64,000 nucleotides of DNA from an uncultured Actinomycetota bacterium (GTDB lineage Bacteria > Actinomycetota > Actinomycetes > CAWDCV01): contig CAWDCV010000002.1 of assembly GCA_963801015.1 (NCBI GenBank), positions 1,307,200 through 1,371,199 of the forward strand. The letters are read 5' to 3'. The position numbers were made by a program, and so were the translations under genes. Positions 3 to 37,156 of this stretch are shown piece by piece. A model generated the notes under the pieces. That model saw only the letters and a list, made by a program, of their open reading frames with translations. It made no database searches and was not told where the DNA came from. The stretch's first letter is position 1. The number at the start of each line of letters is the position of its first letter.

Positions 3-344
3 TGCGTGCTAACCGCGTCGGTAGCGGCCTGGGAGGGCCAGATCGGTCAGATCCCGTACGCCTCAGCGAAGGCCGGGATCGTGGGCATGACGCTGGTGGC
101 GGCGCGCGACCTCGCGAGGAAGCTGGTTCGCGTGTGCACGATCGCGCCAGGCGTCTTCGACACACCGATCTTGTCGCGGTTCTCCGATGACGTCCGGCAG
201 GCGCTTGCGGCGCAGATCCCCCACCCGGCGCGGCTGGGGCAGCCGCCGGAGTACGCCTCGCTGGCGCTGCAGATCATCGACAACCCGATGCTGAACGGGG
301 AGACGATCCGCCTCGACGGTGCGATCCGGATGCAGCCACGATGA
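3..344 (+). CDS. SDR family 3-hydroxyacyl-CoA dehydrogenase (HSD10/type-2-like), 5'-truncated by window edge
   Basis: [17 protein letters not shown] (YxxxK), [10 protein letters not shown]-terminal [17 protein letters not shown] typical of HSD10-like SDRs. Confidence 0.85.
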
Positions 345-1103
345 CTCCGGTCTTGACCCGGGAGGAGTCGGGCGTCTTGGTCGTCACGATCAACCGTCCC
401 GAGGTGCGCAACGCGATCAATCTTGCGGCCGCGTCGGGAATCGCTGCGGCGATGGACGAGCTGGACTCGCGCTCGGATCTCGTCGCCGGTGTGCTGACGG
501 GGGCAGGGTCGTCGTTCTGCACCGGGATGGACCTCAAGGCGTTCCTCGCGGGCGAGCGGCCGTCGGTCCCGGGCCGCGGCTTCGCCGGCATCGTGGAGCG
601 CCCACCAGACAAGCCGCTGATCGCGGCGGTCGAGGGTTACGCGGTCGCGGGCGGCTTCGAGATCGCGTTGGCATGCGACCTGCTCGTGGCCGCGTCAGAC
701 GCGCAGTTCGGCCTGCCCGAGGTCCGGCGCGGGCTGGTGGCGGCCGGCGGCGGGTTGTTGCGGCTGCCGACGCGGGTGCCGTACGGCTTGGCGGTGGAGT
801 GGGCGCTGACCGGAGCGTTCGTGCCAGCGTCGCGGGCTTTTGAGGTCGGGTCTGGTGAACCGACTCACTGACCCGGGCGGCGCGCTGGACGCAGCGCTGG
901 AGTTGGCCGCGACGATCGCCGCCAACGGGCCGCTCGCCGTACGAGCGACCAAGCGCATCCTGGTGTCGTCGCGTGACTGGCCCGCTGCGGAGGCGTTCGA
1001 CCGGCAGCGCGAGATCAGCGAACCGGTGCGGTCGTCAGAAGATGCGCGGGAAGGCGCGCGAGCCTTTGCCGAGAAGCGCCGACCGCAATGGCGCGGCGTC
1101 TGA
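341..1103 (+). CDS. Enoyl-CoA hydratase/crotonase; apparent frameshift near 848
   Basis: [32 protein letters not shown]-terminal part ([14 protein letters not shown]) continues in another frame (ORF 840..1103). Confidence 0.85.
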
Positions 1104-1127
1104 CACCTCGCCGCCACGCACCCGCCC

Positions 1128-1195
1128 AAATGATCACGTCTACGTGATCATTGAGGGCGATACGCCTGTTGTAGAAGGCGTATCGCCCTCACTCG
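1128..1195. repeat. Double-hairpin REP-like element/bidirectional terminator, copy A
   Basis: AATGATCACGT-ct-ACGTGATCATT followed by a perfect 15-bp stem GAGGGCGATACGCCT..AGGCGTATCGCCCTC, between convergent genes; inverted copy at 36788-36855. Confidence 0.8.
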
Positions 1196-1235
1196 CCGCG
1201 CATCACGCGGCGGAATCACGGCCTCGGAGTCGGAA

Positions 1236-2009
1236 CTACTCGGGGTCGGGGAATTGGGGACGGCGCTTCTCGAGGAAGGCGGTCGCGCCCTCGACCATGT
1301 CGGGGCTGCCGATGGCCTGGACGAGCATCCCGAGCCCCGTCGAGAACGAGTCGCGGGCGGCGTTCCACCAGATGTTCGAGCTGATCTTGGTGATCTCGAG
1401 GTAACGCGGACTCAGCACCTCGAACTCCGCGCACCACGCCTCGACCGTCGACTCCAGCTCGGAGTCGTCGACCACCGCGTTGACCAGCCCCATCCGCAGT
1501 GCCTCGTCAGCGGGATAGCGCCGGCACAGCATCGACAGCTCTTTCGCCCGCTTCTCACCGATCTGAATTCCCATGACGTTCGTCGCACCGGTGACCGGCG
1601 AGCTGCCGACCCGCGGACCTGTCTGGCCGAATGTCGCCGAGCGCGCCGCAATGGCGAGGTCGCACGCGACCACGAGCTCGTTCCCGCCACCGGCAGCCGG
1701 CCCGTTGACCGCCGCGATGACCGGCCGCGGGCAGGTACGGATGGCGTCGAACAGCCGCAGCGAGGCGCGATAGAGATGCCGCATGTCACCGGGCGTCGGC
1801 GTGCTCAACGACGCCAACGATCCGCCGGCGCAGAAGCTGCGCTCGACGCCGGTGATGACGACAGACCGCATCGCCGACGCACCTTCGAGGGCCTCGACGA
1901 TCGCCGCGGCCATGTCGGCGTCGTACGCGTTGCGCCGCTCCGGACGGTTGAGCCGGATCCACAGCGAGGAGCCGCGCTGCTCGGTCAGGACGTCGGGCAC
2001 GGCGGTCAC
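1236..2009 (-). CDS. Crotonase-family hydrolase, MenB/BadI/Oah-like (possible cyclic beta-ketoacyl-CoA hydrolase)
   Basis: LNRPERRNA, AAGGGNELVVACDL, FGQTGPRVGS motifs; GTG start overlaps the ACAD stop. Confidence 0.8.
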   Translation of the reverse strand: MTAVPDVLTEQRGSSLWIRLNRPERRNAYDADMAAAIVEALEGASAMRSVVITGVERSFCAGGSLASLSTPTPGDMRHLYRASLRLFDAIRTCPRPVIAAVNGPAAGGGNELVVACDLAIAARSATFGQTGPRVGSSPVTGATNVMGIQIGEKRAKELSMLCRRYPADEALRMGLVNAVVDDSELESTVEAWCAEFEVLSPRYLEITKISSNIWWNAARDSFSTGLGMLVQAIGSPDMVEGATAFLEKRRPQFPDPE

Positions 2010-3190
2010 TCTCTCGTACGGACGACGGTCGACGTGCGATGGCGGTCCATTCGTTTCCACCCGAGCGCGTCGTCGGCGATGAGCAGTGCCTGGATGTTGG
2101 CCGAGCCCTCGCCGGTCTGCCAGAGCTTGGCGTAGTTGAGATAGATGCTGATCGGTACGTCGTCGCTGAAAGCGGCTCCGCCGAAGATCTCGGCCGCCGC
2201 CTGAGCAGCTCGGTTGCCGACCTCGCCGGCGAAGTACTTGGCCACCGAGCTTTCCCGGGTCGCGACGGTGCCGGTGTCGTACCCGCGCGCAGCCTCACGT
2301 ACGAGAGCTCGCGCTGCGGCGACGTCACAGGCCATCTCGGCGATCAGCTTCTTGATCATCTGGAACGAGCCGATCTTCTCGCCGAACGCCTCGCGCTGGT
2401 TGGCGTACTCCACCGACGCGTCGAGGCACGCCTGCGCAAGGCCGACAGAGCGCGACGCCACAGAAAGCCGCCCGTAGTCCATCGCGGTCATCGCGACGAC
2501 GAAGCCCTGCCCGACGTCGCCGAGCACGTTGCGGGCGGGTACCCGTACGCCGTCGAGGTTGACTGCGTTGGTCGGCATCAATGACCCGAGAACGCGGCAC
2601 GGTACGCGCGTCGTCGAGAAGCCGGGGCTATTGGTCGGTACGACGAAGGCGGTCACCCCGCGATGCCCCGCCGCCGGATCGGTCTTGGCGTAGACCACCG
2701 CGACGTCGGCGACGTTCGCGTTGGTGATCCACATCTTGGCGCCATCGAGAACGAAATCGTCGCCGTCGCGTCGAGCCCGAGTACGCATCGCGCCGAGGAA
2801 GTCCGAGCCGCCGTCCGGCTCCGTCATCGCGTTGCAGCCGAGCAGCTCGCCGGTGATCAGCCCGGTGACGTACCGCTCGACCAGCTCGTCGCTGCCCCAC
2901 GCGGCGATCGTCAACGGGACGGTCGCGGCCTGCAGGTTCATGGCGGCGCTCAGCGGCGGGTAGACCCAGGCCAGCTGCTCGGCGACCGCGGCCAGCGCGG
3001 TGTAGCCCGCTGCCGTACCACCCATGGACTCGGGGAAGCAGCACCCGAAGAAGCCAAGCCGGCCCATGTCGCGGTACAGCTCGCGGGGGAACTCCTGCTT
3101 CTCCTCGAGCTCGCGCACTCGAGGGCGAACTTCGCGCAGTCCCCAGTCTCGGACCAGCTCCGACAGCTCATCCGCGAGATCGTTCGACAT
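2006..3190 (-). CDS. Acyl-CoA dehydrogenase
   Basis: AMTEPDGGSD, GAKMWITN, REAFGEKIGSFQ, GEGSANIQ. Confidence 0.93.
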   Translation of the reverse strand: MSNDLADELSELVRDWGLREVRPRVRELEEKQEFPRELYRDMGRLGFFGCCFPESMGGTAAGYTALAAVAEQLAWVYPPLSAAMNLQAATVPLTIAAWGSDELVERYVTGLITGELLGCNAMTEPDGGSDFLGAMRTRARRDGDDFVLDGAKMWITNANVADVAVVYAKTDPAAGHRGVTAFVVPTNSPGFSTTRVPCRVLGSLMPTNAVNLDGVRVPARNVLGDVGQGFVVAMTAMDYGRLSVASRSVGLAQACLDASVEYANQREAFGEKIGSFQMIKKLIAEMACDVAAARALVREAARGYDTGTVATRESSVAKYFAGEVGNRAAQAAAEIFGGAAFSDDVPISIYLNYAKLWQTGEGSANIQALLIADDALGWKRMDRHRTSTVVRTRE

Positions 3191-36180: not shown

Positions 36181-36738
36181 ATGGGCCTGACCACCGAGGA
36201 ACGCGTACGTCGGCTGGAAGACAGGGCCGCGATCCAGGACCTCGCGGTGATGTACGGCTACGTGATGGACGAGCGTGTCGTCGACGGGATTGCGCGGCTC
36301 TTCACCGACGATGCGACGCTGCGTTCAGCCGACGGTGTCTTCGCCGCGACCGGCCTCGACGAGATCGTGAAGACGTACCAGGGCCGCTTCGACGTGCTCG
36401 GCCCGACCAACCACTTCGTGCACGGCCACGTGGTGCAGTTCGACGATGCTGAGCCGGACGTCGCGACCGGCATCGTCTCGTCGCACGCCGAGGTCGTCCG
36501 CAATGACCAGCCGATGTGGGTGGCGCTGCGCTACCAGGACACCTACCGGCGCACGCCGGAGGGCTGGCGGTTCGCCGACCGGCTGATGTCCTACATGTAT
36601 TACGTGGACGTGCGCGAGTACGCCGAGGTGCTCGGGCAGGAGCTGCGGGTGCGGACGTACGACCAGCCAGCCCCAGGCGACTGGCCGCAGTCGCTGCGCG
36701 GCGAGTCCGTCGACTGGGTGACGGGGTATCTCGACTAG
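36181..36738 (+). CDS. NTF2/SnoaL-like protein (BaiE/LinA-like fold)
   Basis: LEDRAAIQDL..YGYVMD, LFTDDA, TNHF, YQDTYRR..WRFADR. Confidence 0.85.
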   Translation: MGLTTEERVRRLEDRAAIQDLAVMYGYVMDERVVDGIARLFTDDATLRSADGVFAATGLDEIVKTYQGRFDVLGPTNHFVHGHVVQFDDAEPDVATGIVSSHAEVVRNDQPMWVALRYQDTYRRTPEGWRFADRLMSYMYYVDVREYAEVLGQELRVRTYDQPAPGDWPQSLRGESVDWVTGYLD

Positions 36739-36787
36739 CGCGCAGCCACCTGCGGTTCTGCGCAACTGGCAGTGATGCGATACGCCT

Positions 36788-36857
36788 CGAGTTAGGGCGA
36801 TACGCCCTCTATAACAGGCGTATTACCCGAAATGATCACGTATACGTGATCATTTCG
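36788..36857. repeat. Double-hairpin REP-like element, copy B (inverted relative to copy A)
   Basis: 30-bp perfect palindrome CGAAATGATCACGTATACGTGATCATTTCG; 60/68 identical to 1128-1195 by manual alignment. Confidence 0.8.
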
Positions 36858-36877
36858 ACGGGCCGGGCGGGTCGGAA

Positions 36878-37090
36878 CTAGCCCGCGTGGACGGCGCTCT
36901 GCAGCACCGAGATCGCCCGCTCCGGGCAGCTGTCGACGCCGAGCTGGGCGTCGGCCTCGAGCTCGGGCGGCACCGGATCGACCATGACGATGGAGTGCCC
37001 GTCCTCGGGATCCAACTCGTAGACGTCAGGTGCGCTCATGTGGCAGACCCCATGACCCTGGCAGACGTCCAAGTCCACTCCGACACGCAT
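36878..37090 (-). CDS. 3Fe-4S ferredoxin (P450-associated type)
   Basis: CQGHGVC..CPERAI; 70 aa. Confidence 0.92.
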   Translation of the reverse strand: MRVGVDLDVCQGHGVCHMSAPDVYELDPEDGHSIVMVDPVPPELEADAQLGVDSCPERAISVLQSAVHAG

Positions 37091-37139
37091 GACGGATCCC
37101 CTTCGACCAGCTCGGAGGTACGGCCCTCCGCTGCTATTT

Positions 37140-37156
37140 AGGATAAGGATTATCAC
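37140..37156. promoter_or_regulatory. Putative 17-bp operator, site 8 (ferredoxin promoter)
   Basis: AGGATAAGGATTATCAC, near-identical to site 5. Confidence 0.65.

Follow-up and report, generated by a model that had tools for sequence, protein, structure and literature searches.

The DNA examined here (the window) is a stretch of 64,000 nucleotides from an uncultured Actinomycetota bacterium (GenBank assembly GCA_963801015.1, contig CAWDCV010000002.1, positions 1,307,200 to 1,371,199). It carries a large catabolic gene cluster that encodes importers, cytochromes P450 with a ferredoxin, luciferase-like oxidoreductases (LLMs), short-chain dehydrogenases/reductases (SDRs), an aldehyde dehydrogenase (ALDH), acyl-CoA ligases, acyl-CoA dehydrogenases (ACADs), crotonases, paired genes of the AtuA family and a GntR-family regulator. 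A preliminary description of the same DNA had listed these genes, and Pfam scans of candidate open reading frames (ORFs) from 1 to 40 kb recovered every item, including three CoA ligases (two AMP-forming and one ADP-forming acyl-CoA synthetase). The list had omitted four neighbours at 4.1-7.5 kb, namely an Amidohydro_2 protein, an FA_desaturase-family protein, a VapBC pair and a DUF3291 protein. The extent of 37 kb given at that time did not hold; base 3 is the window edge, where an SDR gene is cut, and the cluster continues about 17 kb upstream. The total span is therefore about 54-57 kb, ending at the ferredoxin gene (36881-37156), with a left limit perhaps 19.5 kb before the window if an upstream major facilitator superfamily (MFS) gene is counted. 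Pfam analysis of the upstream 20 kb identified a thiolase gene immediately before the edge SDR, two ACADs, a PNPOx-like protein, two SDRs, a second SnoaL_4 protein, an LLM, an AMP-ligase, an ALDH, a family III CoA-transferase (CoA_transf_3), an Amidohydro_2 protein, a crotonase and a third AtuA gene (AtuA3) with an AtuA_ferredoxin partner. Taken together, we think it probable, though well short of certain, that the window holds the right-hand two thirds of a supercluster of about 54-57 kb, conserved in modular form across many Actinomycetota, with two or three modules that would oxidise, activate and cleave their substrate by means of a P450 (with ferredoxin), SDR/ALDH enzymes, F420-type LLM/DDN enzymes, an acyl-CoA ligase and a two-subunit AtuA enzyme.

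The source genome comprises 3.93 Mb in six contigs (97.3% complete, 0.78% contamination), and the GC content of the window is 65-72% in 2-kb steps. The right third of the window is the neighbourhood of the replication origin, with dnaA, dnaN, recF, gyrB, gyrA, rpmH, yidC, gidB and parAB. From the end of the cluster it is about 5 kb to gyrA and about 13 kb to dnaA (window 42043-57456), so that the cluster adjoins the chromosomal replication origin region.

The conservation of the cluster was analyzed in loci from a species-representative genome collection, in which the AtuA1 search returned 30 loci and the regulator search 38; loci of the same genus (L013 and L047), distant AtuA loci (L039-L042, four in all) and L084 (27% identity) were excluded. 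Neighbours were counted by tblastn of the window proteins at ≥40% identity within ±10 kb of the anchor, and the counts, which include related genomes, are lower bounds, as many loci end at contig ends and each spans part of the cluster. The 25 AtuA1-anchored loci contained the AtuA1 small subunit (25), ligase (23), P450 (22), LLM2 (21), ALDH (20), ferredoxin (17), MFS (15), SnoaL_4 (14) and solute-binding protein (SBP, 9), and CitE, MaoC and ACAD2 in 6 each. Around the regulator, the 36 loci contained ECHa and ECHb (27 each), SDR and thiolase (24 each), LivF (19), P450 (18), SBP (17), LLM2 (15) and ACAD1 (12). Nine contigs of other genomes were common to the two lists. The recurring gene order was ligase-LLM-SnoaL_4-SDR-ORF-PNPOx-ACAD / thiolase-SDR-ECHa / ECHb-ACAD1 / GntR / LivFGMH-SBP, followed by P450 / LLM / CoA-transferase-ligase-ALDH-small subunit-AtuA-ferredoxin / P450-ferredoxin reductase-MFS / SnoaL_4. 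Carriers include Nocardioides, Planosporangium, Plantactinospora, Dactylosporangium, Asanoa, Virgisporangium, Prauserella, Amycolatopsis, Nonomuraea, Lapillicoccus, Candidatus Phosphoribacter, some Rhodococcus and many uncultured soil metagenome-assembled genomes. Pfam analysis of three loci from other genomes added a ferredoxin reductase beside the P450, a family III CoA-transferase and an Abhydrolase_3 esterase. The one same-genus genome (G001) was collinear over the whole span at 93-96% nucleotide identity, and a genome from another family (G027, 69% complete) carried a collinear cluster on one contig at 71-84% nucleotide identity. The earlier reading of the genes as a catabolic cluster was thus borne out, with its units occurring together in both the AtuA1- and the regulator-anchored loci of other genomes, and chance juxtaposition is ruled out because the units co-occur in conserved order in many actinobacterial genera.

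A motif shared between the promoters of the cluster had also been proposed, and the AT-rich element in question proved to be conserved across genera. Ten AT-rich islands were identified in the 57 kb, in divergent or upstream intergenic regions, and two classes of element were distinguished. Position weight matrices (PWMs) were built from sites in other genera only (8 distinct sites for Class I and 6 for Class II) and were then run over the 3.93-Mb genome. Class I is a 21-bp element of the P450-ferredoxin intergenic region that was nearly invariant in 17 loci of other genera. Its first and third genome-wide matches lie in the cluster (Table 1), and the second (23.4 bits) lies on contig C4 at about 267269, 19 bp upstream of a SnoaL_4 paralogue. 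The P450_2 and ferredoxin genes are no longer adjacent in this genome; the Class I element is retained at each. Class II is a palindrome, and its PWM ranked window position 15693 first (39.1 bits) and the reverse reading of that site second. The third match, and the best outside the cluster, was at the 5' end of etfB-etfA (contig C4, about 567551); the fourth was at window position 28680 (19.0 bits). Among the nine other loci that reach the SBP gene, eight contained the Class II palindrome. The etfB-etfA genes, which encode the electron acceptor of acyl-CoA dehydrogenases, are thus a possible member of the same regulon. A PEP_mutase-family gene and an ArAE_1 exporter gene lie near the SnoaL_4 paralogue on contig C4.

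The 7-mer (A/T)ATCAT(G/A), read on either strand, occurred 70 times in the genome (0.018/kb) and 7 times in the 57.2-kb cluster (0.122/kb), where every copy lay in a divergent promoter region. In the 61 loci of other genomes its density was 0.178/kb within homologous spans versus 0.021/kb outside, counts that are inflated in that some loci of one genome overlap; 146 of the 157 occurrences within homologous spans fell outside matched coding segments. The regulator combines a GntR with an FCD domain, which places it in the FadR subfamily. It was the single regulator found by Pfam scans of the window cluster and the upstream 20 kb, and its relatives in the 36 loci of other genomes were 50-87% identical. 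The obvious candidate to bind the shared motif is the GntR/FCD protein, given that no other regulator is present and that its identity in 34 of the 36 loci amounts to 64-87%. Of the co-regulation proposed in the preliminary description, the conserved promoter elements common to the units were found; regulation as such is predicted from these motifs.

The AtuA genes provide the clue to how the substrate may be cleaved. A PF07287 search identified three AtuA-family loci genome-wide, every one within the supercluster. At the sequence level AtuA1 gave one weak match in the PDB, 9erq_A (E 0.005), an entry titled both 'AtuA family protein' and 'citramalate lyase, subunit A (cmlA)', in which chain 9erq_B is cmlB. 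The intact G001 ortholog of AtuA2 (467 aa) matched 9erq_A with an E-value of 5e-68 (residues 22-449 against 20-441 of 456), and the window DUF4387 protein matched 9erq_B over its full length (E 1.9e-11). AlphaFold2 models were compared using Foldseek. The AtuA1 model (pLDDT 89) matched 9evf_A (E 1.1e-25, template modelling (TM) score 0.71), with a runner-up TM below 0.2; the title of 9evf is a complex of citramalate lyase, ADP and pyruvate. The model of the AtuA1 small partner (pLDDT 86), which had no sequence match in the PDB, gave 9evf_B as its best hit (TM 0.69, probability 1.0, E 2.4e-3). All three modules are thus predicted to be two-subunit enzymes of the CmlAB kind, by sequence for AtuA2 with DUF4387 and by modelled fold for AtuA1 with its small subunit. 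AtuA2 with DUF4387 is a fairly close relative of CmlAB, and AtuA1 and AtuA3 are distant ones. The two window small subunits gave no significant BLASTP match to each other (E 0.15). According to the available part of a 2026 preprint, Cml (cmlAB) of Raoultella planticola converts citramalate directly to pyruvate and acetate (bioRxiv 10.64898/2026.01.16.699985). On Cml our literature search turned up only this preprint, which uses the enzyme, and it located neither a primary paper on CmlAB nor any paper on DUF4387 or on citramalate lyase together with AtuA.

Since they are homologues of the citramalate lyase CmlAB, the AtuA modules appear likelier to cleave branches than MaoC with CitE. This supersedes the earlier suggestion of CitE as the branch-cleaving enzyme, a role that CitE with MaoC could still play in some genomes. 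The MaoC and CitE genes are present as had been described, but they do not belong to the conserved core, given their occurrence in 6 of the 25 AtuA1-anchored loci and on a separate contig in G027. The remark that the carboxylase of the Atu pathway (AtuC/F) is lacking was correct; Pfam scans of the 57 kb revealed no carboxylase domain, and the four Carboxyl_trans genes of the genome lie >540 kb away at the nearest or on other contigs. In the Atu route, as set out in the available portion of the source, the blocking beta-methyl group is first lengthened by a carboxylase, after which come hydration and the release of acetate (PMC4097962).

These features are consistent with the following scheme. 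A methyl-branched or alicyclic organic acid would be imported by the Liv-type ATP-binding cassette (ABC) and MFS transporters, and the P450s would hydroxylate unactivated C-H bonds. The SDRs and ALDH would take the hydroxylated products to a ketone or carboxylate, the F420-type LLM, DDN and PNPOx-like enzymes would carry out reductions, and the ligases would form CoA esters. ACAD, crotonase, SDR and thiolase enzymes would shorten the chain, with the electron-transfer flavoprotein (ETF) as electron acceptor. At branch points that are tertiary alcohols (tertiary 3-hydroxy acids), a CmlAB-type lyase would perform a retro-aldol cleavage and release acetate; in some genomes CitE with MaoC may take over this step. 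Cleavage of the CmlAB type would thereby stand in for the step of the Pseudomonas Atu route that depends on a carboxylase. The order P450 to alcohol or aldehyde, acid, CoA ester and beta-oxidation proposed in the preliminary description fits the gene families, but its ring hydrolysis is not supported, its sole basis being the weak likeness to BadI and MenB of the crotonase ECHb (best NCBIfam match BadI, TIGR03210, at 165.5 bits, under the 467.6-bit cut-off; best PDB matches MenB, E 4e-37). Here and below, cut-off denotes the curated NCBIfam bit score, and the naming covered 34 proteins.

Our best guess at the substrate, offered tentatively, is a carboxylic acid from soil or plants that is derived from a terpenoid or is similarly methyl-branched or alicyclic. 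It draws on the likeness of the P450s to the methyl-oxidising CYP125/142 and to the monoterpenoid P450cin, P450cam and P450terp, on the MenB/BadI-like ECHb, on the lactonase-like Amidohydro_2 protein and on the near-identical DNA found in soil and rhizosphere metagenomes; none of these clues is specific for a substrate. A more far-reaching proposal, which we regard as decidedly speculative, is that Actinomycetota remove methyl branches or quaternary carbons of terpenoid-type acids without a carboxylase. The P450 and SDR/ALDH enzymes would turn the methyl group that blocks the route into a carboxyl group, dehydrogenation and hydration would give a citramalate-like 2-alkyl-malate, and the CmlAB/AtuA lyases would yield a 2-oxo acid or ketone and acetate, with the three modules acting at successive branch points and the regulon, including etfBA, placed under the one GntR/FCD protein via ATCATG palindromes.

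Table 1. Genes and sequence elements of the cluster within the window, with the match or scan that identified each.
Feature	Position	Strand	Basis
SDR, 3' part; probable 3-hydroxyacyl-CoA dehydrogenase	3-341	+	Pfam adh_short; rest of gene and preceding thiolase upstream of window
Crotonase ECHa	341-1100	+	Pfam ECH_1, residues 2-168 and 166-250 in two ORFs
Dispersed ~96-bp repeat, MITE/REP-like, internal palindrome	1109-1207 and 36777-36872 (mutually inverted)		blastn
Crotonase ECHb, MenB/BadI-like	1239-2060	-	Pfam ECH_1 E 7.7e-51
Acyl-CoA dehydrogenase ACAD1	2009-3190	-	Pfam Acyl-CoA_dh N, M and C domains
AT-rich divergent promoter/operator region, ACAD1/regulator	3192-3222		AT-island scan
GntR-family regulator with FCD (FadR subfamily)	3293-4078	+	Pfam GntR E 5.8e-10, FCD E 1.7e-29
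Amidohydro_2, lactonase/decarboxylase-type metal hydrolase, variable insert	4132-5103	-	Pfam E 5e-37
FA_desaturase-family membrane di-iron enzyme, variable insert	5040-6224	+	Pfam PF00487 E 5.3e-39
VapC (PIN), variable insert	6261-6659	-	Pfam PIN E 3.8e-10
Antitoxin-like ORF upstream of VapC, stop overlapped by vapC	about 6659-6889	-	Translated frame
DUF3291 protein, variable insert	6982-7500	+	Pfam E 3.1e-54
MaoC-type hydratase	7481-7941	-	Pfam MaoC_dehydratas and MC_hydratase
HpcH/CitE-like acyl-CoA lyase	7957-8848	-	Pfam HpcH_HpaI E 3e-32
Acyl-CoA dehydrogenase ACAD2	8865-10076	-	Pfam
Alpha/beta hydrolase	10045-10818	+	Pfam Abhydrolase_6 E 4.9e-21
Liv-type ABC importer	11005-15685	-	Pfam ABC_tran, BPD_transp_2, Peripla_BP_6
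LivF	11005-11721	-	
LivG	11717-12751	-	
LivM	12514-13489	-	
LivH	13503-14510	-	
SBP	14474-15685	-	
Class II palindromic operator-like element upstream of SBP gene	15680-15712		Half-site ATCATG, 2-base spacer
ADP-forming acyl-CoA synthetase	15821-17977	+	Pfam CoA_binding_2, Succ_CoA_lig, ATP-grasp_5
Luciferase-like oxidoreductase LLM1	17913-18956	-	Pfam Bac_luciferase E 1.8e-53
Cytochrome P450_1	18967-20214	-	Pfam p450
Deazaflavin (F420H2)-dependent DDN-family reductase	20210-20685	-	Pfam F420H2_quin_red
AT-rich promoter element, DDN/LLM2	20729-20751		AT-island scan
Luciferase-like oxidoreductase LLM2 (core gene)	20747-21784	+	Pfam
AMP-forming acyl-CoA ligase Lig1 (core gene)	21893-23380	-	Pfam AMP-binding
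AtuA module 1 small subunit (AtuA_ferredoxin domain), CmlB-like fold	23380-23676	-	Pfam PF23544 E 8.7e-30
AtuA1, module 1 large subunit, CmlA-like fold	23676-25013	-	Pfam AtuA (PF07287) E 2.7e-122
Aldehyde dehydrogenase	25013-26521	-	Pfam Aldedh E 3.1e-134
Class I element	26547-26567		Top PWM match genome-wide, 29.8 bits
Cytochrome P450_2	26605-27878	+	Pfam p450; PDB match ends at residue about 355
SDR1	27889-28674	-	Pfam adh_short_C2 E 4.8e-59
AT-rich promoter element, SDR1/P450_3	28666-28696		AT-island scan; holds fourth Class II match
Cytochrome P450_3, CYP107-like	28717-29973	+	Pfam p450; best PDB matches PksS (4.7e-59), TamI, EryF
AMP-forming acyl-CoA ligase Lig2	29973-31391	+	Pfam AMP-binding E 1e-72
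AtuA2, CmlA-like large lyase subunit	31384-32785	+	Weak Pfam AtuA match
DUF4387 protein, CmlB-like small lyase subunit	32775-33080	+	Pfam DUF4387 E 5.3e-21
Luciferase-like oxidoreductase LLM3	33080-34090	+	Pfam E 8.5e-52
SDR2	33946-34908 (longest ORF)	+	Pfam adh_short E 5.1e-50
MFS transporter, CynX/NimT-like	34356-36134 (longest ORF); gene at about 34930-36134; domain starts at residue about 204	+	Pfam MFS_1
SnoaL_4 (NTF2-like) protein	36106-36735	+	Pfam E 4.3e-25
Single-cluster ferredoxin, P450 redox partner	36881-37156	-	Pfam Fer4_13, Fer4_15
Second Class I element, at ferredoxin gene	37136-37156		Third PWM match genome-wide, 22.4 bits

The best PDB matches of P450_1 were an ancestral CYP125 (E 3e-54), P450cin (8e-48) and CYP142 (1.6e-45), and CYP125/CYP142 entries gave the top scores for both P450_1 and P450_2. 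CYP families are named on the basis of ≥40% identity to a named member; the placement given here relies on PDB E-values (3e-54 to 1e-45), not on identities. These scores could indicate a cluster for degradation of steroids, bile acids or sterol side chains, of which ACADs, MaoC, crotonases, thiolase and ligases are also typical, and a Rhodococcus ruber locus has an FAD_binding_2 flavoprotein nearby. However, P450cin, P450cam and P450terp scored nearly as high for P450_1, the regulator is of the GntR/FCD and not the TetR type, and uptake is by Liv-type ABC and MFS transporters rather than Mce. In the 57 kb, to which the search for steroid genes was confined, Pfam scans identified neither a Rieske oxygenase nor an extradiol dioxygenase nor a KstD-type gene. 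We consider a steroid substrate highly improbable. P450_1 and P450_2 are paralogues on opposite strands with about 71% nucleotide identity, and a paralogue of LLM1 with 73% identity lies upstream of the window. The modules owe their origin in part to duplication.

The SBP was related to binders of the HAAT family in the PDB (E about 2e-20), and the MFS transporter scored 223.7 bits against NCBIfam CynX (cut-off 406). The three LLMs scored 161.8 (LLM1), 137.7 and 143.9 bits against TIGR03619, the family of F420-dependent LLM oxidoreductases (cut-off 166.9), and the second-best PDB match of LLM2 was an F420-dependent hydroxymycolic acid dehydrogenase. The DDN protein exceeded the cut-off of TIGR00026, the deazaflavin-dependent nitroreductase family (71.5 versus 46.35 bits). 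The organism should make F420, since the genome contains cofD (C2:488044-489027; two pieces in one open frame, 385 bits combined). For SDR2 the true start is probably near 34100, with the domain beginning at residue 56.

Among the beta-oxidation genes, the best NCBIfam match of ACAD1 was non-decarboxylating glutaryl-CoA dehydrogenase (313 bits, cut-off 470). The P450s, ligases, SDRs, SnoaL-like and LLM proteins of this locus also occur in biosynthetic clusters, such as those for a modified lipid or terpenoid. For this cluster such a role has, in our judgement, next to no likelihood, as degradation is indicated by the importer with its SBP, by the thiolase, the ACADs and the crotonases and by the presence of the same motif at etfBA, and Pfam scans of the 57 kb revealed no terpene synthase, polyketide synthase, nonribosomal peptide synthetase or prenyltransferase domains. 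The MaoC, CitE and ACAD2 genes form a variable insert together with the amidohydrolase, desaturase, VapBC and DUF3291 genes. The Amidohydro_2 and FA_desaturase-family genes (4132-5103 and its neighbour) were not found in the collinear cluster of G027, in which MaoC-CitE-ACAD2 lies on a different contig, and the VapBC area (window 6243-6942) had no match in G001. In loci of Rhodococcus and Dactylosporangium, ACAD2 accompanied CitE and MaoC. Scores in this insert were below the NCBIfam cut-offs, with the Amidohydro_2 protein closest to L-fucono-1,5-lactonase (191 versus 400 bits) and the HpcH/CitE-like lyase at 93.8 versus 443.4 bits for citE and 80.1 versus 375 bits for RipC.

Comparison with intact ORFs of G001 revealed frameshifts in ECHa (near 848), DUF3291 (near 7403), MaoC (near 7788), CitE (near 8212), LivM (near 13069), P450_2 (near 27666 and near 27761) and AtuA2 (near 32262), and the end of the hydrolase gene is affected by an indel near 10787. 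The intact G001 lengths are 253 aa (ECHa), 154 (MaoC), 297 (CitE), 325 (LivM), 430 (P450_2) and 467 (AtuA2). The G001 ORFs for ECHa, MaoC, CitE and AtuA2 each align to the window in two frames, and the P450_2 ORFs of G001 and G027 (421 aa in the latter) align in three; AtuA3, upstream of the window, is broken into four pieces. Seven of the nine gene-breaking indels are 1-base insertions in the window, most of them outside homopolymers. We examined these sites in public data using Logan contigs from four runs of four studies, up to 99.7% identical to window 8000-27999, a check that covers four sites and is not fully independent, as one run may be the source sample. The extra base was absent near 8212 in 4/4 runs (one contig otherwise differs by 2 letters in 982) and near 13068 in both of the covering runs; extra bases were absent near 27662 in one run and near 27760 in three. 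Because the public contigs were without the extra base at all four readable sites, the frameshifts are probably consensus errors of the assembly and not gene decay. A decaying, non-functional cluster in the source organism would account for the at least nine single-base indels that break at least seven genes in window 1-37 kb, for those in the upstream AtuA3 and for the concentration of the window's own indels in the cluster, with no gene broken in the 41-64 kb housekeeping part. We think it very unlikely, in that the indels are mostly of the kind expected of consensus error, the short-read-derived contigs lack the extra bases, and G001 has single-base indels of its own in gyrB (near 46200) and yidC (near 53378), both of which are intact in the window, so that both assemblies carry sporadic indels. 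Apparent joints in metagenome contigs were given no weight; their sides measured 20-27 letters and came from contigs of paralogues. In public RNA runs a fraction of 0.06-0.11 of the sequence words was present.

Two kinds of repeat were also observed. When searched against the genome by blastn, the ~96-bp repeat gave 63 high-scoring segment pairs for the 1109-1207 copy and 89 for the 36777-36872 copy. Copies are also present in G001, and most of the part of the cluster that lies in the window is enclosed between the two window copies. That these inverted copies are the ends of a mobile unit was rejected, given the dozens of genomic copies and the extension of the cluster past the left one. A tandem repeat (10813-10929, period 33, 3.6 copies, 89% matches) occupies the convergent gap between the hydrolase gene and livF, and is one unit shorter in G001 (34-base indel).

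Several observations weigh against the reading of the locus as two or three related modules with CmlAB-type lyases. Among the NCBIfam matches shown for the 34 proteins there was no substrate-level name, and DDN alone passed its curated cut-off. The promoter motif falls into two distinct classes with a binder that is a candidate, and co-regulation and the whole order of reactions are things we infer. AtuA1 shares 16% identity with CmlA over the structural alignment and 26% with AtuA2 over 247 residues; its substrate may be quite different, for example a CoA ester, and ADP is named in the CmlAB structure title. In other genera a ferredoxin reductase adjoins the P450, whereas here the cluster is without one, and the best homologues in the source genome (35-36% identity) lie outside it. 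Frameshifts affect at least seven window genes, and the read check has the scope given above. The G027 cluster is without window 4.1-11.0 kb and 15.8-18.9 kb (ADP-forming synthetase and LLM1), CitE/MaoC/ACAD2 stand beside AtuA1 in just 6 of 25 loci, and module combinations differ between genomes. Because the cluster is modular and its combinations vary, it is possible that several related substrates, or separate pathways under a common regulator, are involved.

On a rival view, the locus would not be one linear pathway but a catabolic island, in which several independent operons, each serving a different substrate, gathered about a shared regulator and beta-oxidation core; these would be, for instance, a C5-dicarboxylate route (CmlAB-like lyase with CitE/MaoC/ACAD2), an alicyclic-acid route and a P450 route. 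The modular variation between genomes, the two motif classes, the three paralogous ligase/LLM/AtuA modules, the variable insert carrying VapBC and the likeness of AtuA2 with DUF4387 to a bona fide citramalate lyase would all be expected of such an island. The retention of core-unit order in many genera, the presence of one regulator only in the window and upstream 20 kb, and the same short motif at promoters across the span in 61 loci argue against it, and we judge it somewhat unlikely. A modular supercluster with a common regulator and two or three cleavage modules is our preferred explanation.

Within the acyclic terpene pathway, AtuA has been the member without an explanation; citramalate lyase is now the one solved and named protein of its family. 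If the lyases described here cut at branch points, they would represent a second general way around the beta-methyl block that hinders degradation of isoprenoid-like carbon, and this carbon makes up a large pool of the organic matter in soil and freshwater. The cluster is spread over many actinobacteria of soil and water, among them Nocardioides, Micromonosporaceae, Pseudonocardiaceae, Streptosporangiales, some Rhodococcus, Candidatus Phosphoribacter and many uncultured soil lineages, and the existence of cultured carriers makes the question directly testable. Such carriers are Nocardioides alkalitolerans DSM 16699, Plantactinospora mayteni NBRC 109088, Planosporangium thailandense TBRC 5610 and Rhodococcus ruber NBRC 15591. 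With the ligand identified, the conserved regulator and operator could also be put to use as a biosensor. The statement in the preliminary description that the combination is not recognisable as a described pathway agrees with our literature search, which found no matching pathway and no description of the cluster in print.

Several known systems share parts of this gene content. CmlAB (PDB 9erq/9evf) likewise consists of two adjacent genes, for an AtuA-family large subunit and a small subunit of ~100 aa. In contrast, here there are three modules set among P450s, ligases, LLMs and beta-oxidation genes, and the partner of AtuA1 and AtuA3 is an AtuA_ferredoxin-domain protein and not DUF4387. The Pseudomonas Atu/Liu system (atuABCDEFGH) has, at the level of Pfam families, an AtuA-family protein, ACAD, crotonase, SDRs and acyl-CoA ligase in common with the cluster. 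As far as the available text of the source goes, it also shares the task of passing a beta-methyl branch with acetate formed from a tertiary 3-hydroxy acid (PMC4097962). Unlike that system, the cluster has no geranyl-CoA carboxylase AtuC/AtuF in or near it, and it includes P450s, F420-type enzymes and an ABC importer. In Pseudomonas, AtuA is one fused protein, whereas here it is split over two genes. AtuR is a TetR-family protein, whereas the regulator here is GntR/FCD, with no other regulator in the Pfam scans of the 57 kb.

The camphor (cam) and 1,8-cineole (cin) routes employ a class I P450 with ferredoxin, dehydrogenases, luciferase-like enzymes, hydrolases and a CoA ligase ahead of beta-oxidation, and P450cin and P450cam were among the better PDB matches of P450_1 and P450_2. 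There is no synteny with these routes, AtuA/CmlAB-type lyases are not part of them, and the LLMs here look F420-type (TIGR03619-like, under the cut-off) and not like FMN Baeyer-Villiger enzymes. The side-by-side arrangement of ACAD2, HpcH/CitE-like lyase and MaoC resembles Mcd-Mch-Mcl of the ethylmalonyl-CoA pathway and Ich-Ccl of itaconate degradation, with a weak match of MaoC to the mesaconyl-CoA hydratase family and of the lyase to citE and RipC; however, the scores are far under the cut-offs, and the trio is a variable accessory here, not core. As in the Bad/Ali cyclohexanecarboxylate pathways and the KstR2 regulon for steroid rings C/D, a single block comprises a ligase, ACADs, an SDR, a thiolase and a MenB/BadI-like crotonase, but no equivalog cut-off was reached, and the regulator family and transporters differ. 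The cluster is thus of a familiar kind, an actinobacterial P450 and beta-oxidation catabolic cluster under a FadR-type regulator; what is new is its wide conservation, its shared operator and its two or three CmlAB/AtuA-type lyases without a carboxylase.

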